A stretch of DNA of 64,000 nucleotides from an uncultured Gammaproteobacteria bacterium (GCA_963714975.1 CAVQQD010000002.1:480001-544000), one strand, 5' to 3'; shown: positions 2,367-37,498, numbered from the stretch's first letter. Notes: generated from the sequence alone by a model not told the origin. Made by a program: numbers and translations.

Positions 2367-2399
2367 TTAAGATGGATGAAGGTTTAAGGAGCAGTTAGC

Positions 2400-5300
2400 G
2401 TGAATGGATTTGTGAGTTTATTGGATCTGATAAGGCAGCGTGCAGCTGAATTTCCTAATCAAATTGCTTATCAATTTGTAACGAGTCATGGTACCTATGA
2501 TTCGCTTACCTATGCTCAATTAGATCACAGAGCCACGGCTGTTGCCGCCGTGTTACGGCAGAGCTCTTGTCAGGGTGAAAGAGCTGTGGTGTTATTACCC
2601 CCTGGCCTAGATTATTTGGTTGCTTTTTTTGGCTGCCTTTATGCGGGCGTCATCGCAGTGCCGGTCTATCCCCCTAGTCGAAATCGACATTCACAAAGAT
2701 TATTTAATATTATTGATGATGCTAAAGTAAATTTTTTTATTACCCATCAAGTTTTTGCTAATCAATATCCAGCAGCTCCCGCGGGGATAAAGATCATTTG
2801 TGTTGATTTAATACCAACGCAAGCTGAGCAAGCAATTCCATCGCTTACTCCAGGTCCTGATGAAATTGCTTTTTTACAATACACTTCGGGTTCGACCAAT
2901 AGCCCTAAGGGGGTTATGGTTAGCTTTGGCAATATCGCTGCTAACTTAGAGGTTCTCAAAAATAATTTTGGTGAACAATGTCATGTGACTTGCTCTTGGC
3001 TACCTCCTTACCATGATATGGGATTAGTCGCGGGAATTATTCTCCCTTTATATCTTAAATCGCGGACTATTTTGATGTCCCCCTCGTATTTTTTGCAGTC
3101 ACCTGTGCGCTGGTTGGAAATTATTTCCAAGGAAAAAGTAGTTCTAAGTGGGGCGCCTAATTTTGCCTATGATTTATGTGTCAAAAAAATTCAGGCTGAG
3201 CAATTACGAAATCTCGATCTAAGTTGCTGGAAATATGCAGTCAATGGTGCGGAAGTCGTTCGACAAGCTACAATACAACATTTTATTGATACCTTCGCGG
3301 TGGCAGGTTTTGCTCCGGAAAGAATCTATCCTTGCTATGGTTTAGCTGAAGCAACTTTGATGCTGACAGGTAAAAAAGCTGCTGCAATCACCCATTCATT
3401 ACCATTACTGAAGACAGAATTAGAACGTGGGCAAGTGGTTATAGCTACTGAAGAAAATGCAGAAAATGTGGTGAATTTTGTTTCTTGCGGCGTAGCTCAA
3501 AAAGATCATGATATTTGCATAGTCGATCCGCACACGCATAAACCTCTTCCAGAGCGAAGCTGGGGAGAAATATGGGCCTGTGGTCCCAGCATTGCTAAAG
3601 GTTATTTTAATAAGCCAGAAATGACAGAAACAATTTTTCATGCTGAATTAACTGAGCCTGTTGCCGGGAAGGAATCAAATTCCTATATGCGTACCGGTGA
3701 TTTAGGTTTTATTTATCAGAATGAGCTTTATGTTGGTGGGCGTATCAAGGACCTGATTATTATTAAAGGATTAAACTATTATCCAGAAGATATTGAATTA
3801 ACTGCCACTGCTAGTCATCCTGCATTTGTACCACATGGGGCCGCTGCTTTTTCTGTAGTGGTTGAAAATGAGGAGCATTTAGTAGTTTTGCAGGAAGTTG
3901 CCCGGGATCAATTACATAAAATTGATGTTGCAGCGGCCTTGCGTGCTATCGAAGTGGCTTTGTTAAATGAGTATGGGCTGCAAGCTTACAGTATTGTGCT
4001 CATTAAACCCCATTCTCTTGCAAAAACTTCCAGTGGGAAAATTCAGCGGTGGGTATGTCGAAGTGAATTTTTAACTAATTCACTACGTGTCCTTGCTACC
4101 TCTCACGCTGCTAACGAAGTTAATCACTCCAACTGCGAAACTTATGAGGCAACGCGAGCTTGGTTAGTCGCTTGGTTTGCTCAGCAATTGCGTGTCTCTG
4201 AGAGTGAAATTAGTGGCAGGGATTTGCATGAATTAGAATTTAGCTCTTTAACAGCCGCTGAATTAGCTAGTGAATTGTCTAATCGATTTGGTAAACGCTT
4301 TGAAATTACTAGCCTACTAGAGCAACCTTCTTTAGAAGATTTAAGCCGATTTATCACGAATCATGGAGTAGCGAAAAATGTTCAGCAAAAGAGCTCAGTA
4401 GAGATCGCAGAAAAATCTTTAGTAAAACCTTTAGACCCAGATTTATTGAGTGCAGTAAAAGATATTTACTTCAAGGTAAATGCTGGAATTTCAGCTAACA
4501 ATACTATCATTGATGGTTCGCAGTATATTAATTTTTCAGGTTACAACTATTTGGGAATGTCCGGCGATGCTCAAGTGACTGCCGCTGTGGTGGCTGCCAT
4601 TCAAGAATTTGGCACCTCAGTTTCTGCGAGTCGTTTAGTCTCTGGAGAAAAACCTTTACATCATCAATTAGAAAATGCCATTTCAAAATTAATCGGGACA
4701 GATGAGACTGCGGTTTTATCTTCGGGATATGCCACTAATTTAGCCGTGATTACCCATTTATTTGGTCCGGGAGATTTGGTTATTTACGATGCCTTAGCTC
4801 ATAACAGTATTTTGCAAGGAGCGCAATTTTCAGGCGCTACTTGCATGGCTTTCCCTCATAATGATATAGGAGCATTAGAAGCAATATTGGAGAAGAAACG
4901 CGATCAATATAGGCGGGTATTAATCGTATCCGAAGGGGTATTTAGTATGGATGGCGATATCTGTGAGGCAACAGCATTAATTGCCATTAAAAAAAGATTT
5001 CAATGCTTTCTCATGTTAGATGAGGCCCATTCCATGGGGGTTATTGGCAATACTGGTTGTGGAATCCGTGAATATTACAATCTTAATCCTAAGGATGTGG
5101 ACATATGGATGGGAACTCTGAGTAAATCATTTGCAAGTTGTGGAGGCTATATTTCAGGTAGTTCTGAATTAATTGAAAACTTTAAATATAGTTCAGCTGG
5201 GTTTGTCTATTCAGCTGGTATTTCTCCTGCTAATACTGCGGCAGCTTTTGCTGCAGTTGAGCTCATGAGACAACAACCGGAGCGGATTAATAATTTACAA

Positions 5301-5579
5301 CAACGTCATTCCTTATTATTGTCTTTATTAAGGAAGGCCAGTATTCCAACCGGCAAGAGTAGTGACACTCCGATAATTCCGCTGATGGCAGGATCAACAG
5401 AGGGGGCAATTAAATTGAGTTCTTATTTAAAGACCTGTTACATCAATGCCTTGCCGATTTTTTATCCAGCTGTTGAAAAAACTTTGGCTCGGGTCAGACT
5501 ATTTGTGAACTGTTTACATACTGAAGAACAAGTGCATTATACAGCTGATGCTATTATTGCGGGCTATCAAACATTATGA
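2400..5579 (+). CDS. Fused fatty acyl-AMP ligase (FAAL) - acyl carrier protein - PLP alpha-oxoamine synthase (SPT/AONS family)
   Basis: FAAL motifs AFLQYTSGST, SWLPPYHDMGL, PCYGLAEATL, MRTGDLGF, KTSSGKIQR; ACP-like ELEFSSL (Ser616); AOS motifs NFSGYNYLG, SEGVFSMDGD, LDEAHS, GTLSKS (Lys909). Confidence 0.9.
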   Translation: MNGFVSLLDLIRQRAAEFPNQIAYQFVTSHGTYDSLTYAQLDHRATAVAAVLRQSSCQGERAVVLLPPGLDYLVAFFGCLYAGVIAVPVYPPSRNRHSQRLFNIIDDAKVNFFITHQVFANQYPAAPAGIKIICVDLIPTQAEQAIPSLTPGPDEIAFLQYTSGSTNSPKGVMVSFGNIAANLEVLKNNFGEQCHVTCSWLPPYHDMGLVAGIILPLYLKSRTILMSPSYFLQSPVRWLEIISKEKVVLSGAPNFAYDLCVKKIQAEQLRNLDLSCWKYAVNGAEVVRQATIQHFIDTFAVAGFAPERIYPCYGLAEATLMLTGKKAAAITHSLPLLKTELERGQVVIATEENAENVVNFVSCGVAQKDHDICIVDPHTHKPLPERSWGEIWACGPSIAKGYFNKPEMTETIFHAELTEPVAGKESNSYMRTGDLGFIYQNELYVGGRIKDLIIIKGLNYYPEDIELTATASHPAFVPHGAAAFSVVVENEEHLVVLQEVARDQLHKIDVAAALRAIEVALLNEYGLQAYSIVLIKPHSLAKTSSGKIQRWVCRSEFLTNSLRVLATSHAANEVNHSNCETYEATRAWLVAWFAQQLRVSESEISGRDLHELEFSSLTAAELASELSNRFGKRFEITSLLEQPSLEDLSRFITNHGVAKNVQQKSSVEIAEKSLVKPLDPDLLSAVKDIYFKVNAGISANNTIIDGSQYINFSGYNYLGMSGDAQVTAAVVAAIQEFGTSVSASRLVSGEKPLHHQLENAISKLIGTDETAVLSSGYATNLAVITHLFGPGDLVIYDALAHNSILQGAQFSGATCMAFPHNDIGALEAILEKKRDQYRRVLIVSEGVFSMDGDICEATALIAIKKRFQCFLMLDEAHSMGVIGNTGCGIREYYNLNPKDVDIWMGTLSKSFASCGGYISGSSELIENFKYSSAGFVYSAGISPANTAAAFAAVELMRQQPERINNLQQRHSLLLSLLRKASIPTGKSSDTPIIPLMAGSTEGAIKLSSYLKTCYINALPIFYPAVEKTLARVRLFVNCLHTEEQVHYTADAIIAGYQTL

Positions 5580-6232
5580 ATAAAAATCTCTATTCAAACC
5601 AAGTAGTCAACAATGATGGCTGCAGTCCTAGATTATTTGCTAATCCTATTTTAGAGCGTTTAAGTTGTACCTTACCAAGAACCCTATTTTTTGCTTACGC
5701 GCCGCTGGTAGTTTTTTTTCTGTACCAATCTACTAGGCAATGTGCTTATGGGAAAACTGTATTAATTTTTTGTCTAGGTATCTTTCTTTGGAGCTTTGTT
5801 GAGTATTTAATTCATCGTTTTGTTTTCCATTATGTGCCTACACAATCAAAGTGGGAAAAAATAAACCCGCTTTTTTATGGCAATTTTATTCACAACATTC
5901 ATCACGCTTACCCGAAAGATCCCTTGCGGTTGGTGACCCCGTTGGTAGTTACTTTACCCTTAGCAGTAATTTTTTATGGGTTATTTCATATTATATTCGC
6001 TAGCTATGCTCCAGGATTATTTGCTGGTTTTTTGCTAGGGTACCTTGGCTATGATTTGTTGCACGCGTTTACTCATGTTGCTCCTATGCGCAGCCGCTTA
6101 GGGAGATTTTTGAAGCGTTACCATATGCAGCACCATTACTTAGTAGAATACCAATCATTTGGGGTCAGTAGTCCTTTATGGGACTATATTTTTAATACTG
6201 TTCAATCAAAACCTAATAAGAACAGTAAATAA
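5576..6232 (+). CDS. Fatty acid hydroxylase / sterol desaturase family (FA2H/Scs7-like)
   Basis: His boxes EYLIHRFVFH, HNIHHAYP, YDLLHAFTH, HMQHHY, and FGVSSPLWD; ATGA overlap with upstream gene. Confidence 0.9.
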   Translation: MNKNLYSNQVVNNDGCSPRLFANPILERLSCTLPRTLFFAYAPLVVFFLYQSTRQCAYGKTVLIFCLGIFLWSFVEYLIHRFVFHYVPTQSKWEKINPLFYGNFIHNIHHAYPKDPLRLVTPLVVTLPLAVIFYGLFHIIFASYAPGLFAGFLLGYLGYDLLHAFTHVAPMRSRLGRFLKRYHMQHHYLVEYQSFGVSSPLWDYIFNTVQSKPNKNSK

Positions 6233-6247
6233 TTGAGGTAAACTGCG

Positions 6248-7375
6248 ATGTCCATCCAAATCGTTCCAGTTAGTTCAAGACAACATTGGAAGCATTTTCT
6301 ACAATTACCAAACGTGTTACATCAACATGATCCCAATTGGGTTCCCCCCTTACAAATTTCAGTCAAAAATATTTTAAATCACAAAAATCCTTTTTTTAAA
6401 CGGGCTAAAGTGCAATATTGGTTGGCTTATCAGCATGAAAAACCTGTAGCGCGTATAGCTGGTATTATTAATGAGGTACATAACGAATTTCACGAAGAAA
6501 AAGTGGCCTTTTGGGGCTATTTTGAGTCTATAGATAATACTCAAGTAGCAGCGCAACTGTTTGTTGCATTGTCACATTGGGTAAGTGGATATGGAATAAC
6601 CACTTTGCGTGGACCAGTCAATCTTTCTACTAATTACGAATGTGGTATGCAAATATCTGCTTTTGACACTAAGCCTTTTGTGATGACGCAGCAGAATCCC
6701 GCCTATTATCCTCACTTGATCGAGTCTTTAGGTTTTGTTAAAGTCAAAGATTTAGAAGCCTGGAAAATGGATCATAAAACAGCAAAATTGGATCCGCGAT
6801 TGTTGGAACGGACAAAAAAATTTGCACAAATGAATGCTATTACAATTCGAACTATTCGCTTAGATCAATTTGATCAGGAAATTTCCGCAATTTATCATTG
6901 TTACAACGATGCTTGGGAACGAAATTGGGGATTTGTCCCCATGCCAAAGGATGAATTTTTATTTCTCGCCAAAGAAATGAAGAGCATTCTTATGCCAGAA
7001 TTTTGTTTTATTATAGAGGTCGCTGGGGAAGTTGCTGGTTTTTCTATCTGGTTGCCCGATATTAATCAGATAGTCATTAAAATTCGGGATGGAAAGTTAT
7101 TTCCTACAGGGTTGTTCAAGCTATTCTGGTATTCGAAAGTACGCAAGGTAATCAATCAAGGAAGAATTATTGCTTTAGGAGTTCGAAAAAAATTTCGACA
7201 TTTAAACTTAGGTTCATTGTTATATAATAAATATTTTGAAACGCTCCCGGCGGCAGGTTACCCAATCAGTGAATGCTCTTGGGTATTAGAGGATAATGAG
7301 GCAATGCGGACTGCGTTGCAGTTTATGAATGGGGAAGTGTATAAGCATTATCGGCTATATGAAAAAGCAATATAA
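6248..7375 (+). CDS. GNAT-fold acyltransferase, bacterial ceramide synthase (bCerS)-like
   Basis: 375 aa; DPNWVPPL, ARIAG, GYFESID, LRGP, NPAYY, YNDAWERNWGFVP, LPDINQ, LGV, SWVLEDN motifs typical of this family; context. Confidence 0.7.
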   Translation: MSIQIVPVSSRQHWKHFLQLPNVLHQHDPNWVPPLQISVKNILNHKNPFFKRAKVQYWLAYQHEKPVARIAGIINEVHNEFHEEKVAFWGYFESIDNTQVAAQLFVALSHWVSGYGITTLRGPVNLSTNYECGMQISAFDTKPFVMTQQNPAYYPHLIESLGFVKVKDLEAWKMDHKTAKLDPRLLERTKKFAQMNAITIRTIRLDQFDQEISAIYHCYNDAWERNWGFVPMPKDEFLFLAKEMKSILMPEFCFIIEVAGEVAGFSIWLPDINQIVIKIRDGKLFPTGLFKLFWYSKVRKVINQGRIIALGVRKKFRHLNLGSLLYNKYFETLPAAGYPISECSWVLEDNEAMRTALQFMNGEVYKHYRLYEKAI

Positions 7376-7378
7376 CTT

Positions 7379-8371
7379 ATGAAAGTTTTATTAACAGGTG
7401 CTTCTGGGTTTTTAGGTTCTCACACGGCTGAATGTTTAGTGCAGCATGGTTATCAAGTGCGTTGCTTGGTTCGTCCCAGTGCTAGCCTTAATTTTATCAA
7501 GGAATTTACCTCTGCACTTGAGTTAATTGAAGGGTCTTTAGAAAATACTTCGTCCTTGCAACAGGCGGTGGCTGGAGTAGATGCTATTATTCATTGCGCA
7601 GGTTTGATAAAGGCTAGGACTTCCACGGATTTTTTTAACACGAATGCTAGTGGTACCTTATCTCTACTGGAAGCTGCAAGAAAAACGACACCTTGTTTAC
7701 GGCGTTTTATTTTAGTATCTAGTTTAGCAGCCTGCGGCGCTGCATTAAATAATTTTCAGCCTACTTCAGGTGAGATACTACCTCAACCCGTGAGTAATTA
7801 TGGCCGCAGTAAACTGCAGGCTGAAGTGAACGCAATAAAATATGCTGAAGCGTTTCCGGTCACAATTATTCGTCCCTCTATTGTCTATGGTCCCCGCGAT
7901 TTAAGTATGTTAACGCTTTTTAAAGCTTTTAATCGGGGGATTATTCCGCTGATTGAGGGTGGCGCAGGCGCAGTGAGTACCATTTATGTCAGGGATGCTG
8001 CACAAGCTTTGGTTAAAGCCGTAGCGGCAGAGGTCCCTAGCGGTAACGCTTATTTCTTAGAAGATGGCAGGACTATGACTTGGCGGGAAAGGTATTCTAT
8101 CTGGTCCCAAGCTATTTTAACTGGAAAAAATATTAAAATTCCCGTACCGAATCTATTCCTGGGTCTAACAGCCTGGGCTAACGAATGTTATGGAGCATTG
8201 ACCAAAAAAACAGTATTTTTAACTCGGGATAAATTACGCGAACTGCAGCAAACTTATTGGGTATGCAGCAGTGCTGCAGCTTCACAAGACTTATCATGGA
8301 AGGCTGCCGTTTCTTGGGTAGAGGGAAGCAAGTTAACTTATCAGTGGTATAAAAAAGAGGATTGGTTGTGA
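7379..8371 (+). CDS. NAD-dependent epimerase/dehydratase (extended SDR), candidate oxidized-ceramide reductase
   Basis: TGASGFLG Rossmann motif, HCAG, SSLAA, catalytic YGRSK. Confidence 0.85.
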   Translation: MKVLLTGASGFLGSHTAECLVQHGYQVRCLVRPSASLNFIKEFTSALELIEGSLENTSSLQQAVAGVDAIIHCAGLIKARTSTDFFNTNASGTLSLLEAARKTTPCLRRFILVSSLAACGAALNNFQPTSGEILPQPVSNYGRSKLQAEVNAIKYAEAFPVTIIRPSIVYGPRDLSMLTLFKAFNRGIIPLIEGGAGAVSTIYVRDAAQALVKAVAAEVPSGNAYFLEDGRTMTWRERYSIWSQAILTGKNIKIPVPNLFLGLTAWANECYGALTKKTVFLTRDKLRELQQTYWVCSSAAASQDLSWKAAVSWVEGSKLTYQWYKKEDWL

Positions 8372-8733
8372 AAAAATTTCTTGAGAAATTATATTGGGCA
8401 ACTGTTTTTTCTTTGCGGGGATTGCGTGCTGCTTGGCATTTTCAATGGGCATTTCGGTTGGAAGTTTTGGCCTTTATCTGTGGCATACCTTTGGCTATTT
8501 ATTTTGGACACGAGACCTGGCAAAAATTTATTTTAATATTTTCTTTGCTTTGGATATTAGTAGCAGAACTGCTTAATAGCGCGATTGAAACGATAGTGGA
8601 TCGCATTGGAACAGATCATCATGAATTATCAGGCCGAGCAAAAAATCTGGGGTCAGCTGCGGTATTCATTTTGGTATTAAATGCTTTGCTCACTTGGGGG
8701 ATTATTTTATTGGGAAACCCCCCTTCTCTCTAA
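8368..8733 (+). CDS. dgkA: Integral-membrane diacylglycerol kinase
   Basis: SLRGLRAAW, AFRLE, AELLNSAIETIVDRIG, ELSGRAKNLGSAAV; GTG start overlapping upstream TGA with GAGG RBS. Confidence 0.9.
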   Translation: MKKFLEKLYWATVFSLRGLRAAWHFQWAFRLEVLAFICGIPLAIYFGHETWQKFILIFSLLWILVAELLNSAIETIVDRIGTDHHELSGRAKNLGSAAVFILVLNALLTWGIILLGNPPSL

Positions 8734-8782
8734 CCCTCTCCCACCTACCCTCGCTGGCGTACGGGTGGGGGAGAGGGGATTT
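8716..8782. repeat. Family A palindrome overlapping the 3' ends of dgkA and the PAP2-like gene
   Basis: ccccttctctctaaccctctcccacctaccc...gggtgggggagaggggatt. Confidence 0.8.
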
Positions 8783-9602
8783 CTAAAGCATAGCTGGGGA
8801 TAAATTTGGGCTTAAAGTAGGCTAACTGATAAGTTACCAAGGAGATTAGCAGTAGGGCAATGCAGGAGTAAGCAATCAGGACGTTGTTTCTAGGATACAT
8901 ATTAGCAAAACGTTGCAAATAACCTTGTATTTTCACGGTCTTAAATAATTGATAGGCACATTCGGAAATGATAATGCCGACGATTCCATCCAGCAAAATA
9001 TGAATTTTCAGAGTGAAGGCGCCAATAGACATGCCAATAAACCAAAGTAAATAGATATAACTTAGTAATTTAAATCGTTCAAAGCTATAGCGCAGGATTA
9101 TCCAGCCACTACCGATGTGATACGAGGGAAAAGAATTCCAAGGAGAAGTGATAGACATAATAAATCGAACATTGGCTGTTAGCCAGTCTGTGTCCTGTGT
9201 TTGCCAAAATGTTATAAATCCAGGATCTTCCCATAGTGGAACTTGGGTAGGAAATAGGAAATACAGGGCATAATGAATGGATAGTACTAATAAACAGGTG
9301 AAAAAGATTCGATAAAATAGCAGAAAATTGAGCCTTGATTGAACAATAATGATCCAGGACATCAGAAAAGGAACAATTAAGGCACTGGAATAGAACAATG
9401 ACCAAGAAATTGTAAAATGGATGTTTTTATCGATAGGTGTAGTAATTAACTCGATATAATTTACTTGGCGATAACCGACCAGATCGCCAATAAATCCATA
9501 TTGCGCCCAATAGCAAAGAGTGATAAGAAATAAAACCGCTATTTCTAGAAATCGTAATAATGGGGTTGAATGAGTATTTACGTGTATTTCTTGCTGCAAC
9601 AT
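8745..9602 (-). CDS. PAP2/Aur1-like (inositol phosphorylceramide synthase-like) membrane phosphotransferase/phosphatase
   Basis: Multiple hydrophobic segments; NSFPSYH and HILLD motifs give the His-His-Asp triad. Confidence 0.7.
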   Translation of the reverse strand: MLQQEIHVNTHSTPLLRFLEIAVLFLITLCYWAQYGFIGDLVGYRQVNYIELITTPIDKNIHFTISWSLFYSSALIVPFLMSWIIIVQSRLNFLLFYRIFFTCLLVLSIHYALYFLFPTQVPLWEDPGFITFWQTQDTDWLTANVRFIMSITSPWNSFPSYHIGSGWIILRYSFERFKLLSYIYLLWFIGMSIGAFTLKIHILLDGIVGIIISECAYQLFKTVKIQGYLQRFANMYPRNNVLIAYSCIALLLISLVTYQLAYFKPKFIPSYALEIPSPPPVRQRG

Positions 9603-9704
9603 GGGCTTTGGTACCTTCGAAATTAGGAGAGAATTATAGCGCTTATCTTTGCTTCGTCAATCCTATATAATCCGTTAACCAATTATCGTTAAGAGGAGAA
9701 TGCT

Positions 9705-10748
9705 ATGCTGCCCACACGTGGTTATGCTGCTGTAAGTGCGGATGCGCCTTTACAAGCTTTTAATTTTGAAAGACGTGAGCTTGGCCCTCACGATGTTTTT
9801 ATTAAGATACTTTATTGTGGCGTTTGCCATTCTGATATCCATCAAGTCCGTAATGAATGGGGGCACACGACCTATCCGGTGGTGCCAGGCCATGAAATTG
9901 TGGGCAAAGTGGCTGGTATAGGCAGTGCGGTTACGAAATTTAAAATAGAAGATATTGTTGGCGTAGGTTGCTTTGTCGATTCTTGTCGGCAATGTCTTAA
10001 CTGCCAAGAAGGTGAAGAGCAATTCTGTGAAAACGGTGTTTCCTATACCTATTGTGGGACAGAGCAGGATAAGAAAACTTCAACTCAAGGGGGTTATTCT
10101 GCACAAATTGTCGTCGATGAGAATTATGTCTTAAAAATTTCTGCAAAATTATCCTTGGCTAATGCTGCCCCGCTGTTGTGTGCAGGCATTACCACCTATG
10201 CACCTTTGAAACGGTTTAAAATAGGGGCTGGTCACAAAGTAGGCATTATTGGGTTAGGTGGTTTAGGCCATATGGCGGTGAAATTTGCTGCTGCTTTTGG
10301 GGCAGAAGTGACTGTTTTTAGTACTTCTGCCGCTAAAGAGGCGGATGCACGCCGTTTTGGAGCCAAGCATTTTGTGCTTACCAACAAACCCGAAACCCTG
10401 CAACCTTTGCTAGGACAGTTTGATTTTATTCTGGATACGGTTTCGGCAAAGCATGACATCAATAGGTATTTAAGTCTGCTTAAACGAGGGGGTACTTTAG
10501 TACTGGTAGGTGTCCCAGAACATCCGTTTGAAGTTCAGCCATTTGCATTACTTGCGAACCGTAGAAGCTTTGCTGGCTCTAATATTGGTGGCATTCGAGA
10601 GACTCAAGAGATGCTAGATTATTGTGCTAAACATAATATTAGTTCAGAAGTCGAAGTAATTCCCATCCACGAAATTGAAGCAGCCTTCGCGCGTACGATT
10701 AAGGGCGATGTGCGTTTTCGATTCGTTATTGATATGGCGAGTTTATAG
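9705..10748 (+). CDS. NADP-dependent zinc alcohol dehydrogenase (CAD/YahK-like)
   Basis: CGVCHSD, VPGHE, structural Zn cysteines, PLLCAGIT, GLGGLG, RFRFVID. Confidence 0.95.
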   Translation: MLPTRGYAAVSADAPLQAFNFERRELGPHDVFIKILYCGVCHSDIHQVRNEWGHTTYPVVPGHEIVGKVAGIGSAVTKFKIEDIVGVGCFVDSCRQCLNCQEGEEQFCENGVSYTYCGTEQDKKTSTQGGYSAQIVVDENYVLKISAKLSLANAAPLLCAGITTYAPLKRFKIGAGHKVGIIGLGGLGHMAVKFAAAFGAEVTVFSTSAAKEADARRFGAKHFVLTNKPETLQPLLGQFDFILDTVSAKHDINRYLSLLKRGGTLVLVGVPEHPFEVQPFALLANRRSFAGSNIGGIRETQEMLDYCAKHNISSEVEVIPIHEIEAAFARTIKGDVRFRFVIDMASL

Positions 10749-10771
10749 AAAATCCCTTCTCCCCTTGTGGG

Positions 10772-10908
10772 AGCTATCCGATGCACACAAATCGGTCAGC
10801 AATTCCGCTGAAGCCTTGCTCCCCGGCGGGTCCTGCCGGCTGCGGCACCCGCCGGTCTAATGACGGAGCAGCGACAATTGCTGACCGATTTGTGTACATC
10901 GGATAGCT
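10772..10908. repeat. MITE-like element (family D) with 33-bp terminal inverted repeats, nested in a family A repeat
   Basis: agctatccgatgcacacaaatcggtcagcaatt at 10772-10804 and its inverse at 10876-10908 (1 mismatch); partial inverted copy at 30436-30531. Confidence 0.85.
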
Positions 10909-11057
10909 TGTAGCTGAAGGTCGGATGATGGTGCATCATTATTCGGCTTTTAATACGGGAATACGGTATTGGACTTTCATTTAATCAGTTAAGCTTCCTT
11001 GGCTAGTTTGTTACTAGCAATGATAAAACCTATTTTAACTATTAAAGGAGCACACTT

Positions 11058-11378
11058 ATGCTATATCGTATTATTCTTCAGGGCTGTTTGATTTTTTCTT
11101 TGTTGTTTTCAGGACTTGCAGGCGCAGAACCAAGTTCCAAAATGGTTTCTGTGAGTGGGACCCAAGCTTCACCAACCATCAATATTAATATCGCCGACAG
11201 CAATCAGCTGCGAACTCTCAAAGGAGTGGGGGCTAATAAAGCTCAGGCTATTCTCGATTATCGGGCACAACATGGGGCATTTAAATCTGTCGATGAACTA
11301 GCAAATGTCAAAGGCATTGGCGAGAGACGCTTTGCTCAAATACAGAAAAAGAATCCCGGTAGAATTGTAGTGCAGTAG
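11058..11378 (+). CDS. comEA: ComEA-family helix-hairpin-helix DNA-binding protein
   Basis: Signal peptide, ININIAD, LKGVGANKAQAILDYR, FKSVDEL, VKGIG. Confidence 0.9.
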   Translation: MLYRIILQGCLIFSLLFSGLAGAEPSSKMVSVSGTQASPTININIADSNQLRTLKGVGANKAQAILDYRAQHGAFKSVDELANVKGIGERRFAQIQKKNPGRIVVQ

Positions 11379-11597: not shown

Positions 11598-12803
11598 CTA
11601 TGAGCTCAGTTTTTTCCTTCTGGGAAAATCTGGCATGATCCGTTTCATGAATTCTCCAAATAATGGCACTGTAAAGGCAGTGTCGCCATGTTTTGGGCTA
11701 TAAATCATCCCTTTTTTTATTAAATTATTCCGCAGAGGGGCCACGCTTTGTACATCGAGGCCGAGTTCTTCGGCGATTTCTCCAGATCGTTGAGCGGCAG
11801 CGCCTAATTCAGCAAGCGCTCTGAGATATTCTTTTTCTCTTGGGGTTAAACGGTCAAACCGAACGCGAAAAAAATTTTGGTCGAGCTTTTGAATGGCAGT
11901 AGTTGTGGCTTGTTTTGCCACATCAATGTCTATGGGCGATTTAGTAGCAAGATTCCATGCTGAGTAACCCCATTCTTGAAGAAAATAAGGATAGCCTTCA
12001 GTGACCCGAAGGATTTCATCTAAGGCTTTTTCTGTGAAACTTACTCCTTCTCGCTTAACGGGGGCTTGTAAAGCTACCTTTGCATCTTCCTTTTTTAAAG
12101 GCCCTAATTCTGGAAAGTCAAAAAGTCGCTCGGCATAGGATTTAGCGAGCCCTGTTTTTCTCACAAGTTGGGGTAGTCCAGCCCCAATGAGGACTACTGG
12201 CAGGGATTTTTGTGATAGTTTGTGTTGAGCCATAATAAGTGAACTTAATTCTTCTTCATTTAAATATTGGAGCTCATCAATAATAATAGCGATGGCGGTA
12301 TTACGCGTTTTTGCTGCTTCTCCAATAGCAATAAAAACCTGAGCGAGATCAGCTTCTAAGTCGCCACTGTCAGCGATTCCTTTTTCAGGGTCGATATCCA
12401 AACCTAAATCGATATTTTGGATTTTAATGTTAAGATTAATTCTCGATATAAAGCTTTTTAAAATCCGCAGGGCTCTTTTTACTTTACTATTTACTTCCTT
12501 GTCATCAAGCACGAAAAGTATTCGACGTAGCTCAGGGAGTAATAATTCAGGAAGTAATTTTTTTTCATGAGCTTCTATCATAGCCATTTGATATCCTTCC
12601 AATTCTGCTAATTTAGAAATTTCATGTAAAAGAACAGTCTTACCTGTTCCCCGTAATCCAATAAGTAGAATACTTTTTTCAGCTCGACCACGCTTGACCC
12701 GTGCCAAGGTCATCATAGCCTGTTTTAGAATATCGCTTCTGCCCGCGAGTTCTGGGGGAGGGGTGCCAGCGCCAGGAGAAAAAGGGTTATGTAAGGGATT
12801 CAT
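11598..12803 (-). CDS. AAA-family ATPase with C-terminal winged helix
   Basis: NPFSPGAGTPPPELAGR, Walker A GLRGTGKT, Walker B IIIDELQ, GYPYFLQ. Confidence 0.85.
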   Translation of the reverse strand: MNPLHNPFSPGAGTPPPELAGRSDILKQAMMTLARVKRGRAEKSILLIGLRGTGKTVLLHEISKLAELEGYQMAMIEAHEKKLLPELLLPELRRILFVLDDKEVNSKVKRALRILKSFISRINLNIKIQNIDLGLDIDPEKGIADSGDLEADLAQVFIAIGEAAKTRNTAIAIIIDELQYLNEEELSSLIMAQHKLSQKSLPVVLIGAGLPQLVRKTGLAKSYAERLFDFPELGPLKKEDAKVALQAPVKREGVSFTEKALDEILRVTEGYPYFLQEWGYSAWNLATKSPIDIDVAKQATTTAIQKLDQNFFRVRFDRLTPREKEYLRALAELGAAAQRSGEIAEELGLDVQSVAPLRNNLIKKGMIYSPKHGDTAFTVPLFGEFMKRIMPDFPRRKKLSS

Positions 12804-24603: not shown

Positions 24604-25482
24604 ATGAGTGTAATTAATTGTGACGAAATTGATGATTGGAATGTAGAGCGTCCTGCATCACTGAAAACCTACCTGATTAATTCGCTTGAATCAGGCGCAT
24701 TGCTTTTTTTGCCTAGACTTGCTTTTTTATTAAAGGATGAAGAACGAAAATTTTTGTCGCCGCAGTTTGTGCAGAAAAAAGTAAAAAATATTAGCTTTAA
24801 TCCTGCTTTGCAGTCGCTCAAGGGAGTTGTTGGTTCTGCTACAGAATGCCAACAAATCCAAGCAATGTTGGCACGTTTTTCGCAGCAATCGCAACTCATT
24901 ATCCAGATTTTATTTCCCCATTATGCCAATGCGTTACAAATGGGGCGTACTAGTTTTCGTCCTTGTGAAGTGAGCAAGCGACGACTTTCCTATCGTAAAG
25001 ATGACCGCCTCTTACATGTCGATGCATTTCCTAGTTCTCCCAATCACGGCCAACGATTATTGCGCGTATTTAGTAATGTAAATCCGCATGGCCAGGATCG
25101 AGTGTGGCGTATAGGCGAGCCGTTTGCATCCGTTGCACAACGCTTTCTGCCCTTGATTCCCAGGCCTTGGCCGGGAAGTAGTCAATTACTACGTTGGCTG
25201 AAGATTGCTAAAACTTTAAGAACTGAATATGATCATCTTATGTTGCAAATACATGATCGAATGAAGGCAGATGCCTTTTATCAACAAAATGTTGATCAAA
25301 TCCAATTACGCTTACCTCCTGGAACTAGCTGGATTGTACAAACTGACCATGTTTCTCATGCGGCGATGAGTGGCCAATATATGTTTGAACAGACATTTTA
25401 TTTGCCTGCCCAAGCAATGTTGGATCCAGGGAAATCACCGTTGAAAATTTTAGAAGGGATGTTGAGCAGGAATTTGGTTTAG
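24604..25482 (+). CDS. kdoO: Kdo hydroxylase family (KdoO) dioxygenase
   Basis: RTSFRP, RKDDRLLHVDAFPS, LRVFSNVNP, YDHLMLQIHDRMK, HAAMSGQ. Confidence 0.85.
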   Translation: MSVINCDEIDDWNVERPASLKTYLINSLESGALLFLPRLAFLLKDEERKFLSPQFVQKKVKNISFNPALQSLKGVVGSATECQQIQAMLARFSQQSQLIIQILFPHYANALQMGRTSFRPCEVSKRRLSYRKDDRLLHVDAFPSSPNHGQRLLRVFSNVNPHGQDRVWRIGEPFASVAQRFLPLIPRPWPGSSQLLRWLKIAKTLRTEYDHLMLQIHDRMKADAFYQQNVDQIQLRLPPGTSWIVQTDHVSHAAMSGQYMFEQTFYLPAQAMLDPGKSPLKILEGMLSRNLV

Positions 25483-27780: not shown

Positions 27781-28953
27781 CTACGCCGCACCCAACGCGC
27801 TTGCTCCACGAGCCATCACAGCATGCCCTGCTGCTAAAATATTTTTCGCCGCGTTCAAGTCAGCATTTGCTGCATATCCGCACGATACACACACAAATTC
27901 ACTTTGGGTCTGACGGTTTTCCTTGGCAACATGCAAACAATGAGAACAACGCTGGCTGGTATAGTGGGGTGATACTTCAATGAACATCCCTCCATTCCAC
28001 GTCAGCTTATATCCCAATTGTCGCCTGAATTCATACCAGCCCTGGTCTAATATCGCCTTGTTTAATCCAGACTTCGCAGCAACATTCACCCCGGGATTTT
28101 GTAAGTCTCCCGATGCGGATCGACTCATATTTTTTACTTGCAAATCTTCCACAACCACTACCGCGTGGCTTTTGCTGATGCGGGTTGTAGTCTTGTGTAA
28201 AAAATCTCGTCTCATGTTCGATGCTTTTTGATGCAGTGCCTCTACTCGAGCCACTTGCTTCTTCCATCGCCCAGAAAATTTTTGCTTCTTCGCTAATTTG
28301 CGCTGCTCTATCCCTAATCTTTTTTCTATCTGCCTAAAACTATTCAAGGATTCTATAGTGTCACCATTGGATAGGGTCGCGAATTTTGCAATGCCTGCGT
28401 CTATACCTACGCTATCGACTGCTGTTGACTGCGAAGAGATGTCTTGTTGTACTTGGATACTGATATACCAATGTTTTCCTTGCCGCGATACCGTTACATT
28501 TCGTATGTCCCCTATGACCTCCTGGCTTCGGTAAAAATGAATCCAACCTAATTTCGGTAATTTCAGACGGTTGCCTTCTAATTCGATTTGCTTCGGCTCC
28601 GGAAATCGAAAACTATCGTGACGACCTTTTTTCTTGAAGCGGGGTAATCGTTTATTTGGCTGCGTTTTGTTAAATGCATCGGAAAATGCTCGATCTAAAT
28701 CACGCAATTTTTGTTGCACGATATGTGCTGGACATTCTTTCAAAAAACCATATTCTGCAGATTGCTTCCATTGCTTCACCCAAAAATCAAATTCTGCATA
28801 GCGCAGAATACGCTCCTGTCGTTGCAAGCGTTCCAAATTCATGCGGCAACATTTATTCCATACAAATCGACAATGTCCTGCATAAGCGGACAGTTGCTGC
28901 TCAATCTCTTGGCTGGGTTTTAAGCGAAAACGATAGGCTTTTTTGATTTTCAT
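27781..28953 (-). CDS. tnpB: TnpB RNA-guided endonuclease
   Basis: KAYRFRL HTH, RuvC GIDAG / VEDL / NADLNAA, Zn ribbon CSHC..CVSC. Confidence 0.95.
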   Translation of the reverse strand: MKIKKAYRFRLKPSQEIEQQLSAYAGHCRFVWNKCCRMNLERLQRQERILRYAEFDFWVKQWKQSAEYGFLKECPAHIVQQKLRDLDRAFSDAFNKTQPNKRLPRFKKKGRHDSFRFPEPKQIELEGNRLKLPKLGWIHFYRSQEVIGDIRNVTVSRQGKHWYISIQVQQDISSQSTAVDSVGIDAGIAKFATLSNGDTIESLNSFRQIEKRLGIEQRKLAKKQKFSGRWKKQVARVEALHQKASNMRRDFLHKTTTRISKSHAVVVVEDLQVKNMSRSASGDLQNPGVNVAAKSGLNKAILDQGWYEFRRQLGYKLTWNGGMFIEVSPHYTSQRCSHCLHVAKENRQTQSEFVCVSCGYAANADLNAAKNILAAGHAVMARGASALGAA

Positions 28954-34958: not shown

Positions 34959-37498
34959 ATGAATGCTAAAGAAATTATTCGCGTTTCGCTCGAACAAGAA
35001 ATGAAACAGTCCTATCTGGATTATGCGATGAGCGTTATCGTTGGCCGTGCGTTTCCTGATGTGCGAGATGGTTTAAAACCAGTGCATCGTCGCGTTTTAT
35101 TTGCCATGCAGGAATTGGGTAATGATTGGAATAAACCCTATAAAAAATCTGCTCGTATTGTCGGTGATGTGATCGGTAAATACCATCCTCATGGTGATAC
35201 CGCGGTATATGACACCATCGTGCGTATGGCACAGCCATTTTCCATGCGTTATTTATTGGTAGATGGTCAAGGAAATTTTGGTTCAGTCGATGGCGATGCC
35301 CCTGCTGCCATGCGTTATACCGAAATTCGCATGTCGCGTTTTGCCCATACATTATTGGCTGATTTAGAAAAAGAAACCGTTGATTTTGCACCCAATTATG
35401 ATGGTCAGAACGAAATTGCCCAGTGTTATTACCGACACGCGTTCCTAATTTATTAGTCAATGGTTCTTCGGGTATTGCGGTGGGTATGGCAACCAATATT
35501 CCGCCGCATAATTTAAACGAAGTCATTGATGCTTGTATTGCCTTGATGGATAATCCAGAAATTCCGTTAGATGACATTAATGGAATATGTTCCTGGCCCT
35601 GATTTTCCAACAGCTGGCATTATTAATGGTCGAGCAGGTATTTTACAAGCCTATCAAACAGGGCGTGGGCGTATTTATGTGCGCGCTAAAACCGAAATCG
35701 AAGACACGATAAAGTACAGGAAAAACAAGCGATCATAGTGCACTGAACTACCCTTATCAAGTGAATAAAGCGACGATTGATTGAACGAATTGCCGAACTG
35801 GTGAAAGAAAAGAAAATTGAGGGCATTACCGCGATGCGTGATGAATCAGATAGAGAGGGTATGCGCATTGTCATTGAATTACGTCGTGATGAAAATGCCG
35901 GAAGTGATATTAAATAATTTATTTGTGCAGACCCAATTACAAGTGGTTTTTGGTATTAATATAGTGGCATTAGATCGATGGCCGACCGCAGCGTGATTAA
36001 ATCTTAAAGCAATTATTTGAAGCTTTATTCAGCATCGTCGCGAGGTGGTGACACGGCGCACGCATTTTTGAATTACGAAAAGCCCGTGAACGTGCGCATA
36101 TTTTAGAAGGGTTAGGTGTTGCGTTGGCCAATATCGATCGAAATGATTGCTTTAATCAAAGCAGCTGCCTGATCCTGCTAAAGCTAAACAACAATTATTA
36201 GCGAAGACTGGCCTGCCGGCTTGGTGCTAGCAATTGCTGAATCGATCCTGACAGCGAAATGTTCAAGTCCGGAAGGATTGAGCCTGAATATGGCTTATCT
36301 GAGCAGGGTTATCGTTTATCTCCTGAGCAAGCACAAGCGATTTTGGATTTTCGCTTACATCGTTTCACGGCTTTGAACAAGATAAAATTTTCAATGAATA
36401 CCATGAATTATTAACGATAATCAAAGATTTATTCGAAATATTGACTAATCCTGATCGTTTATTACAAGTGATTCGGAACGAATTGCTCGAAATTAAGGAA
36501 CAATTTGGTGATGCAAGACGTACTCAAATTCGTTGAAAGGTGATGAAGATTTTACTGCTGAAGATTTAATTCCACATGAAGAAATGGTTGTCACGGTTTC
36601 ACATGAAGGCTATGCCAAAACACAACTTTTGGATGATTATCAAGCACAACATCGCGGCGGCAAAGGCAAATCGGCTACCACGATGAAAGAGGAAGATTTT
36701 GTTCAACAATTACAGATAGTGAATACTCATGATACCTTATTGTGTTTTTCTAATTATGGCAAAGTGTATTGGTTGAAAGCGTATATACTACCAGCAGGCC
36801 AGCCGATTAGCCCGTGGTCGACCCTTTGGTTAATTTATTACCTCTGGCCGAAAGATGAACGTATTAGCGCAATGTTAGGGTTGCGCCTGTATGCGGAAAA
36901 TCAGTTTGTTGTTATGGCCACTGCCGCTGGGACTATTAAAAAAGTGCCGTTGAGTAATTTTTCCCGTCCACGCGCCGATGGTATTATTGCTATCCTATTA
37001 GATGAAGGCGATCAGTTGGTGGGGGTTGATATTACCAATGGAGAAAGTGAAGTCCTGTTGTTTAGTGATGTAGGAAAGGTCATACGTTTCCACGAATCCC
37101 ATTTGAGACCAATGGGACGTAAAACTCGTGGAGTGCGTGGCATTCGCTTACAGGAGAAGCAACGGATGATTGCTATGATCATTGCCAAGGCAAAGGGTAG
37201 TATTTTAACTGCGACTGCGAATGGTTTTGGTAAGCGTACCCCGATTGAAGAATATCGGCAGACGGCAAGGGGTGTGCAAGGGGTGATTTCCATTCGAGTG
37301 AATGAACGAAATGGCAAAGTGATTGGTGCGTTAGAAGTTTTTGAGGGTGATGAGCTGATGTTAATCAGCGATCAAGCACGCTTGATACGCACTCGGGTGG
37401 ATGAGCTCAGGGAAATAGGTCGTAATGCTCAGGGAGTTAAATTGATTCATCTCAATGAAGGTGAACATCTGGTTGGTTTACAAAGAATAGTTGAGTAA
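34959..37498 (+). pseudogene. gyrA: DNA gyrase subunit A, multiply frameshifted as sequenced
   Basis: [30 protein letters not shown], GyrA box QHRGGKG; frame breaks from about 35410 to 36530 and near 36800. Confidence 0.9.

Follow-up and report, generated by a model that had tools for sequence, protein, structure and literature searches.

In a 64,000-nucleotide stretch of DNA from an uncultured Gammaproteobacteria bacterium (GCA_963714975.1, CAVQQD010000002.1:480001-544000; the whole stretch is hereafter called the window, and positions are counted from its first letter), we analysed a gene at 2400-5579 on the plus strand that joins a fatty acyl-AMP ligase (FAAL), a carrier domain and an alpha-oxoamine synthase (AOS) resembling serine palmitoyltransferases (SPTs) in a single open frame of 1059 amino acids. 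Judging from its sequence and neighbourhood, this fusion gene probably codes for a long-chain-base synthase that is self-contained and stands at the start of a bacterial ceramide pathway. The gene heads a conserved and tight block of six genes (2400-9602), which is most likely an operon for making ceramide-type lipids.

The fusion frame starts with a GTG codon, and inspection of the sequence found a Shine-Dalgarno-like AAGGAG (2386-2391, plus strand) 8 nt upstream of it. Database and genome searches returned full-length relatives of the protein at 47-69% identity, and thus the frame is not a chance open reading frame (ORF). The Pfam assignments, all of them above the family cut-offs, divide the polypeptide into three parts encoded on the plus strand. 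First, the FAAL domain (2433-4094, residues 12-565) consists of an AMP-binding match (PF00501, residues 12-403, E 6.1e-60) and of a FAAL/DIP2-type C-terminal subdomain (PF23024, residues 451-565). Second, a carrier domain (PP-binding, PF00550; 4161-4355, residues 588-652) scores 41.2 bits for a cut-off of 20.8. Third, the pyridoxal phosphate (PLP)-dependent AOS domain (Aminotran_1_2, PF00155) spans 4521-5555, residues 708-1052, with E 6e-45. The original prediction, made from this DNA alone, had proposed these three domains on one chain, with a carrier serine at residue 616 and a PLP lysine at residue 909. The polypeptide is intact, and the Pfam matches and motif positions, namely, EATL at 317-320, EFSSL at 613-617, SASRLVSG at 742-749 and LSKSF at 907-911, place both residues as proposed: Ser616 at 4245-4247, within the variant EFSSL motif, and Lys909 at 5124-5126, within LSKSF. 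Residue conservation was scored on sequences P0001 and P0003-P0121 (120 in total), from which the 110 with lengths of 1000-1250 residues were kept and 10 were dropped; these 110 are referred to below as the fused relatives.

Sequence comparison identifies the N-terminal domain as a fatty acyl-AMP ligase, as opposed to an acyl-CoA ligase. The FAAL models of NCBIfam match it at 443 (PRK05850), 384 and 383 bits, as compared with 114 bits for the FadD model, and its nearest solved relatives are FAALs, namely, 7r7f (485 bits) and 3kxw (413 bits), the latter being the Legionella pneumophila FAAL, whose deposited name, 'saframycin Mx1 synthetase B', is misleading. The segment that follows GLAEATL (residues 317-365) aligns with both structures with gaps of 1-2 residues only. 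These hidden Markov model scores and alignments bear out the earlier suggestion of a FAAL-type enzyme with an extra segment after EATL, a segment absent from fatty acyl-CoA ligases. The motifs of the ANL family are also in place, YTSGST at 161-166 and SSGK547IQR with the A10 lysine; residues Y161, T162, S163, G164, T166 and K547 are each invariant in all 110 fused relatives, and position 165 is serine in 105 and threonine in 5.

In the carrier domain, the attachment residue Ser616 is a serine in 110/110 fused relatives and, in a further count, in 67/67 fused sequences. The residues around it are unusual, as had been noticed: position 613 is glycine in 106 of the fused relatives and glutamate in 2, and position 615 is aspartate in 84, asparagine in 22 and serine in 2, with the window protein carrying E613 and S615. 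Hence, the motif is atypical in its flanks, and the serine itself is invariant. The genome has a single phosphopantetheinyl transferase gene (PF01648, open frame of 242 amino acids), which shows a capacity for arming carriers and nothing further. A second FAAL gene (629-amino-acid open frame) is located some 20 kb away from it, and a 2652-amino-acid frame elsewhere in the genome includes an adenylation-like part; the coordinates of these matches are G000:C2:871904-872227, 893878-895266 and 1115192-1116601.

The AOS domain retains the catalytic residues of its superfamily. H801, D874, H877, K909, R1031 and R1033 are each invariant in 110/110 fused relatives, and the PLP lysine, the stacking histidine, the aspartate and histidine of DEAHS and the C-terminal carboxylate-binding arginine align with those of the solved SPTs that we compared, namely, Sphingobacterium multivorum SPT (SmSPT; 3a2b, 8guh), plant LCB2a (7yjo) and human SPTLC2 (7k0i). 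The best solved relatives of the domain are SPT catalytic subunits: LCB2a at 215.5 bits, the Sphingobacterium SPT at 204.2 and SPTLC2 at 190.5, with the SPT from Sphingomonas at about 154. Among enzymes other than SPTs, Kbl reaches 177 bits, the cysteate acyltransferase 28eh 142.1, BioF structures 133-153 and the CAI-1 synthase 93.

The loop SASRLVSG had been read as a sign that the amino-acid substrate may not be serine, and this did not survive the comparison. S744 and R745 of the loop are invariant in all 110 fused relatives, and the same Ser/Thr-Arg pair occurs in the solved SPTs (GSRFLNG in SmSPT, SSRVDAG in LCB2a and STRQEIG in SPTLC2); the motif YNYLG is likewise common to the window AOS, LCB2a and SPTLC2. 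According to the part of PMC10196870 that deals with the Gly80-Asn85 loop of SmSPT, Ser81 touches the substrate carboxylate via water molecules. As the Ser-Arg pair is invariant and present in solved SPTs, the loop gives no reason to doubt serine; by its sequence, it would neither argue against serine nor prove it. The ceramide-type neighbours, too, favour serine as the substrate.

These neighbours follow the fusion gene closely. The start of a fatty-acid hydroxylase-family gene (5576-6232, plus strand, 218 amino acids, PF04116) overlaps the fusion stop, and residues 18-209 of its product match the yeast ceramide very-long-chain fatty-acid hydroxylase Scs7 (4zr1) with E 4.3e-25. It is followed by a GNAT-like N-acyltransferase gene of the YghO/CC_1154 family (6248-7375, plus strand, 375 amino acids), a candidate bacterial ceramide synthase, whose product is 33.5% identical to YghO of E. 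coli BL21 over its full length (382 columns, E 5e-71, BLASTP). The CerR-like reductase gene that comes next (7379-8371, plus strand, 330 amino acids, PF01370) belongs to the NAD-dependent epimerase/dehydratase family of short-chain dehydrogenases/reductases (SDRs), and its product is 31.3% identical over 313 amino acids to the epimerase encoded in the spt cluster of E. coli BL21 (BLASTP, E 2.5e-42). The last gene of the block on this strand is of the DgkA type, that is, of the prokaryotic diacylglycerol kinase family (8362-8733, 123 amino acids; PF01219, 103.7 bits, full length). A convergent gene on the minus strand (8745-9602, 285 amino acids) closes the block, and encodes a PAP2_3 membrane phosphotransferase or phosphatase (PF14378, 39 bits) with residues H162, H201 and D205 invariant in 4/4 orthologues.

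PF14378 is a family that we take to be linked to the inositol-phosphoceramide synthases Aur1/Ipt1; a literature search on the family brought up unrelated 'PAP23' papers only. Protein-atlas look-ups for the GNAT and PAP2_3 proteins gave generic clusters only, with one weak lead (0.90) from PAP2_3 to clusters that bear the name 'putative sphingomyelin synthase family', and none of the NCBIfam models matched the hydroxylase, GNAT, DgkA-like or PAP2 genes. A promoter-like site of the PAP2_3 gene (9660-9633, minus strand) scores 11/12, as a consensus match only; between 1500 and 10000, promoter-like matches (28 vs 22.8 +/- 4.7 in shuffles) and terminator-like matches (11 vs 7.1 +/- 2.7) did not exceed shuffled sequences. 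No sequencing runs, RNA included, were listed as containing 2400-9602.

The six genes recur together in relatives. The GTDB order of the window genome has 9 genomes, 4 of which (the window genome included) contain the fusion; the GNAT gene is present in the same 4 and in 0/5 of the fusion-less genomes, two of them 95-96% complete and three 63-67% complete. Since these genomes are kin, this co-occurrence amounts to one block inherited together and not to five independent tests. All six genes occur again as a block in G002/L013, G006/L068 and G003/L054, with each gene 50-75% identical and with flanks that differ from those of the window, so that the borders of the block were set at 2400 and 9602. 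A Zn-dehydrogenase gene at 9705-10748 was considered as a further member and rejected, as it has no match in L013, L054 or L068. Also beyond the block lies a gene for an AAA_16/STAND-like ATPase with weak C-terminal winged-helix matches (11598-12803, minus strand), which is not conserved beside the block in relatives. In G003, a metagenome-assembled genome (MAG) that is 100% complete, the fusion of the main block is split into at least 4 ORFs (L054 9652-12925, G003:C2), and a second copy of the fusion and GNAT genes, on another contig, is riddled with stops (G003:C1:75020-79978); these broken copies could be a decaying duplicate or assembly errors. In G006, a FAAL within a 1740-amino-acid frame (G006:C28:152918-154837) lies 25 kb upstream of the block.

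Beyond the order, a near-full-length match to the fusion was found in only 5 of the 400 gammaproteobacterial genomes scored as a sample; two of these, G191 and G350, lie outside the order, in a second gammaproteobacterial family, and carry the arrangement SDR-fusion-GNAT. The SDR gene adjoins the fusion in L013, L054, L068 and L073, and GNAT and SDR neighbours occur at L072/L073 and L018 in addition to L013, L054 and L068; a Chlamydiae MAG has the order AOS-SDR-hydroxylase-GNAT with a stand-alone AOS. At about 50% identity, the fusion is found in Legionella gratiana, L. wadsworthii, L. anisa, L. sainthelensi, L. parisiensis, L. santicrucis and L. resiliens. The accessions of the fusion and GNAT proteins are adjacent in L. 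gratiana (KTD12093/KTD12096; P0010/P0159) and L. wadsworthii (STY28936/STY28937; P0016/P0226), and from such neighbouring accession numbers it seems that named Legionella species have kept the core of the block. P0182, one of the GNAT clusters, carries the label L. pneumophila. Pirellulales fusions are 38-42% identical over the full length, and ceramide genes were not found within 10 kb of them; 5/5 of the tested Pirellulales genomes with a fusion have an unlinked GNAT homologue (31-35% identity). As PF00501 and PF00155 occur together in 120/120 of the best database hits to the fusion, the tri-domain architecture is a common and not a rare one in databases, with examples in Legionella species, Pirellulales and others.

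What can be read directly from these data is the domain make-up of the fusion, its catalytic residues, its homology to parts of the tested E. coli/Caulobacter system and the conserved gene order; from these we infer every enzymatic step, the use of serine, the independence from CoA and the head group. In the pathway that we propose, the FAAL domain would adenylate a free long-chain fatty acid and, as expected of a FAAL, hand the acyl chain over to phosphopantetheine attached at Ser616 of the in-cis carrier and not to CoA. The PLP domain, presumably a dimer like other AOSs, would then use Lys909 to condense the carrier-bound acyl chain with L-serine, with loss of CO2 and release of a 3-keto long-chain base. 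The N-acyltransferase of the YghO/CC_1154 type would attach the second chain, the CerR-type reductase would reduce the 3-keto group, and the Scs7-like hydroxylase would hydroxylate an acyl chain. Finally, the PAP2_3 protein and the DgkA-like kinase may add or recycle a phosphate-linked head group, either by moving the group from a glycerophospholipid onto ceramide, in which case DgkA would phosphorylate the freed diacylglycerol again, or by direct phosphorylation of ceramide. The channelling of a free fatty acid to the condensing domain without CoA, which was part of the original prediction, thus finds support, as an expectation, in the FAAL type of the ligase and in the precedent of AasR and AcpR. 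That fatty acid had been thought to come possibly from a host. The genome encodes a FabF/B-type ketosynthase, and therefore the acid need not be host-derived; the genome's own fatty acids are a possible source.

The AOS domain was placed in a tree of 36 rows, chosen by us from the loci and proteins collected in this analysis, which included no Bacteroidetes or Sphingomonas SPT, Kbl or LCB2, nor PfSgaB. All the FAAL-fused, the polyketide synthase (PKS)-linked and a few stand-alone AOSs form one clade, with support of 99/99, which a long branch sets apart from the genome's own BioF as well as from E. coli Spt. The nearest stand-alone AOSs follow immediately after iterative type I PKS genes (L041, L026) or lie in an rkp-like locus (L044), and in L029 a closely related AOS is fused to a type I PKS. 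All four share YNYLG, SASR and NPKDVDIWMGTLSK with the window AOS domain. The L029 protein (4079-11167, from a Myxococcales MAG) is a polypeptide of 2362 amino acids with the order KS-AT-ACP-KR-DH-AOS; the arrangement of an iterative type I PKS gene directly upstream of a closely related AOS is found at L041 2184-11197 and L026 3211-11104 (Hansschlegelia and a gammaproteobacterial MAG), and in Hansschlegelia a YghO-like gene comes after the PKS-AOS pair. The picture suggested by these sequences is that of a carrier-fed AOS family in which a PKS and a FAAL-carrier pair have replaced each other as acyl supplier.

Several observations weigh against assigning the fusion to ceramide synthesis. The AOS domain misses the cut-offs of the NCBIfam SPT equivalogs, namely, NF047600 (272.5 for 640), NF047599 (247.3 for 500) and NF047603 (189.5 for 670); its best-scoring model is bioF (TIGR00858), at 344.6 and yet below the cut-off of 426.45, and the Kbl model, at 274.6, does not reach its cut-off of 460 either. 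The carrier has an atypical attachment motif and, in BLASTP, its match to E. coli AcpR is not significant (E 5.4). A long branch (2.27) lies between E. coli BL21 Spt and the clade of the window AOS, and this clade is unplaced relative to proven SPTs because the tree had no such SPT, Kbl or LCB2 rows. A sequence search of the PDB gave no match for the GNAT or PAP2_3 proteins, nor for a 4-row PAP2 profile, and the head-group step is a guess as these two proteins have no solved relatives. Naming by homology carries a risk, as is shown by a putative SPT of the AOS family from Nostoc, stand-alone and without any fusion, which proved inactive as an SPT according to the text available from PMC8895605. 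In the literature, we found no activity reported for any member of the fused family; nor did literature searches return a description of a FAAL-carrier-SPT fusion, although the supplements of PMC9386255 and PMC11324152 may list fused forms, and the terms 'fused' and 'fusion' led to nothing relevant in PMC9386255, PMC11334938 and PMC12134224.

The missed SPT cut-offs speak for an alternative that keeps the same mechanism with another amino acid, glycine or alanine giving 1-deoxy-type bases, or cysteate giving capnine- or sulfonolipid-type bases. SPTs can use alanine and glycine at low efficiency (PMC10196870), bacterial (1-deoxy)ceramides are discussed in sections of PMC11334938, and the window loop is unlike the GSRxLNG of SmSPT. 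However, Ser744-Arg745 and YNYLG agree with LCB2a and SPTLC2, the cysteate acyltransferase 28eh scores 142.1 bits vs 204-215 for SPTs, and a kinase together with a PAP2 phosphotransferase in the block would suggest a free hydroxyl for a head group; on balance, we regard another substrate as a minor but appreciable chance. Less probable, and in our view improbable, is that the product is a surface-polysaccharide anchor or a PKS-type secondary metabolite instead of a bulk membrane ceramide, as at rkp/wcb- or SgaAB-type loci, in which a megasynthase is followed by a related AOS. This would fit the nearest stand-alone AOSs behind type I PKS genes (L041, L026), the PKS-fused AOS of L029 and a polysaccharide-export gene near the AOS of L044, but there are no PKS, KpsC/KpsS or export genes in or beside the window block, which carries instead a ceramide set of N-acyltransferase, reductase and Scs7-like hydroxylase.

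It is very unlikely that the product is a diffusible signal, an alpha-hydroxyketone or aminoketone of the kind made by CqsA or LqsA. These two enzymes belong to the same superfamily, and Legionella relatives use LqsA; an autoinducer-synthase model also matches the AOS domain. Yet this match, at 163.1 bits, is far under its cut-off of 428 and under all SPT, BioF and Kbl scores, the CAI-1 synthase structures reach just 93 bits, and the neighbours are lipid-building enzymes. The top rank of TIGR00858 among the models could point to a housekeeping BioF or Kbl that was fused by chance to the other domains. The 344.6 bits are, however, under the cut-off; the genome has its own canonical bioA/bioF-bioC-bioD locus elsewhere, which disfavours a BioF role for the fusion; and the BioF paralogue of the genome is only 32% identical and has no Ser-Arg pair (it reads SSASP). 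We therefore give this explanation next to no weight, and retain a long-chain-base synthase acting on serine as the probable function.

If the fusion is indeed a long-chain-base synthase, a natural fusion of ligase, carrier and SPT would be independent genomic support for the notion that many bacterial SPTs draw their acyl groups from a dedicated carrier and not from acyl-CoA. Orthology-based SPT look-ups miss the fused family, as all three curated SPT cut-offs fail, and therefore the range of sphingolipid-capable bacteria is probably underestimated. The operon would also be a compact gene set leading from a fatty acid to a decorated ceramide, testable in a heterologous host. What is new from the window is the complete ceramide gene set in one operon and the tie to Legionella relatives, for whose ceramides this type of operon is a candidate explanation. 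In PMC9146996, ceramides are reported in L. gormanii, for which KEGG mapping gave no SPT and PSI-BLAST proposed only two AOS homologues. The PGAP name of one of the two, A8O30_RS00250, is also that of the fused Legionella proteins. Literature searches found no paper that names genes for sphingolipid synthesis in Legionella.

It is tempting to speculate further that the clade of carrier-tethered AOSs, supplied either by a PKS or by a fused FAAL-carrier, provides a second route into sphingoid bases, one that is CoA-independent and escapes standard SPT searches, a possibility that we hold tentatively and with more doubt than conviction. If so, Legionella species, the Legionella-like order of the window genome, Pirellulales, Acidobacteria and others would be true sphingolipid producers. 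The Scs7-like hydroxylase, PAP2_3 and DgkA would then build eukaryote-like hydroxylated phosphosphingolipids, of the inositol phosphoceramide, ceramide phosphoethanolamine or sphingomyelin type, with recycling of diacylglycerol. This could allow mimicry of host membranes, and would supply the missing genes behind the ceramides of L. gormanii.

Elsewhere in the window, three further genes were recorded. A Kdo hydroxylase gene (24604-25482, plus strand; PF11004, E 3.4e-110), for modification of the lipopolysaccharide inner core, is preceded by an enoyl-CoA hydratase gene. An IS605 OrfB/TnpB-like gene (27781-28953, minus strand) combines OrfB_IS605 with a Cas12f1-like TNB domain. An ORF of 321 amino acids (36533-37498, plus strand) consists solely of the beta-propeller repeats of the DNA gyrase A C-terminus, and may represent either a GyrA C-terminal domain that stands alone or an ORF that was called in truncated form.

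With regard to known systems, the original prediction had named the prodiginine enzymes RedL and RedN/PigH as known cases of fused oxoamine synthase domains. PigH and RedL/RedN do have a carrier domain and a PLP-dependent AOS domain on one chain; these fused domains act on pyrrolyl or polyketide intermediates in pigment assembly lines, without ceramide-type neighbours. The comparison has to be replaced, since the domains and neighbours of the window gene match the cluster of AasR, AcpR and Spt. The solved SPTs aligned above are stand-alone enzymes or subunits of membrane complexes that use acyl-CoA, whereas the window AOS is fused. The next nearest system after AasR, AcpR and Spt is PfSgaAB, in which Pseudomonas fluorescens MYb115 pairs an iterative type I PKS with an AOS that has SPT activity (PMC12134224). 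There, too, the AOS receives its acyl chain from a carrier domain and not as acyl-CoA, but the chain is supplied by a PKS, whereas in the window a FAAL and a carrier would act on a ready-made fatty acid. By analogy, the clade of PKS-linked AOSs looks like the PfSgaAB type, with PfSgaB itself presumably belonging to it.

The closest known system is found in Caulobacter crescentus and in E. coli BL21(DE3), where it comprises AcpR, Spt and AasR, the last of which carries the annotation of a fatty acyl-AMP ligase; sections of PMC9386255 report that the three E. coli BL21 proteins were tested experimentally and that SPT favours acyl-AcpR as its substrate in the rhodobacterial AasR, AcpR and Spt system. 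The same source, as far as available, identifies E. coli yghO (ECD_02850) as a homologue of CC_1154 (CerS) and the epimerase as a homologue of CC_1164 (CerR), a pair of genes (epi and CC_1154/YghO) also covered in the available text of PMC11324152. The FAAL domain of the fusion is 31.7% identical to E. coli BL21 AasR over 562 amino acids (E 1e-79) and its AOS domain is 31.1% identical to Spt (E 2e-56; both BLASTP). The two systems are alike in that a dedicated ligase loads a dedicated carrier and the SPT takes an acyl-carrier instead of acyl-CoA, and in that the N-acyltransferase and the epimerase-family reductase come from the same families. A published means of recognizing 'Spt-like' proteins is that bCerS and CerR genes are their neighbours (PMC11334938, in the part at hand), and in the window these neighbours are the GNAT (6248-7375) and SDR (7379-8371) genes; the GNAT protein itself has the full-length homology to YghO and the linkage to an spt-type gene by which the bacterial ceramide synthase family is recognized. 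The differences are that AasR, AcpR and Spt are separate proteins, joined into one polypeptide in the window; that the window carrier has no significant similarity to AcpR and the AOS falls in another, long-branched clade; and that the Caulobacter locus has cpg and lptF/G-type genes where the window block has an Scs7-like hydroxylase, DgkA and PAP2_3. Thus, as far as its sequence can tell, the fusion works like AasR, AcpR and Spt and yet is not a member of that system, because its carrier and AOS come from other lineages and its parts are fused. Most likely, it represents a known three-protein system whose parts have become covalently joined, and not a new chemistry.

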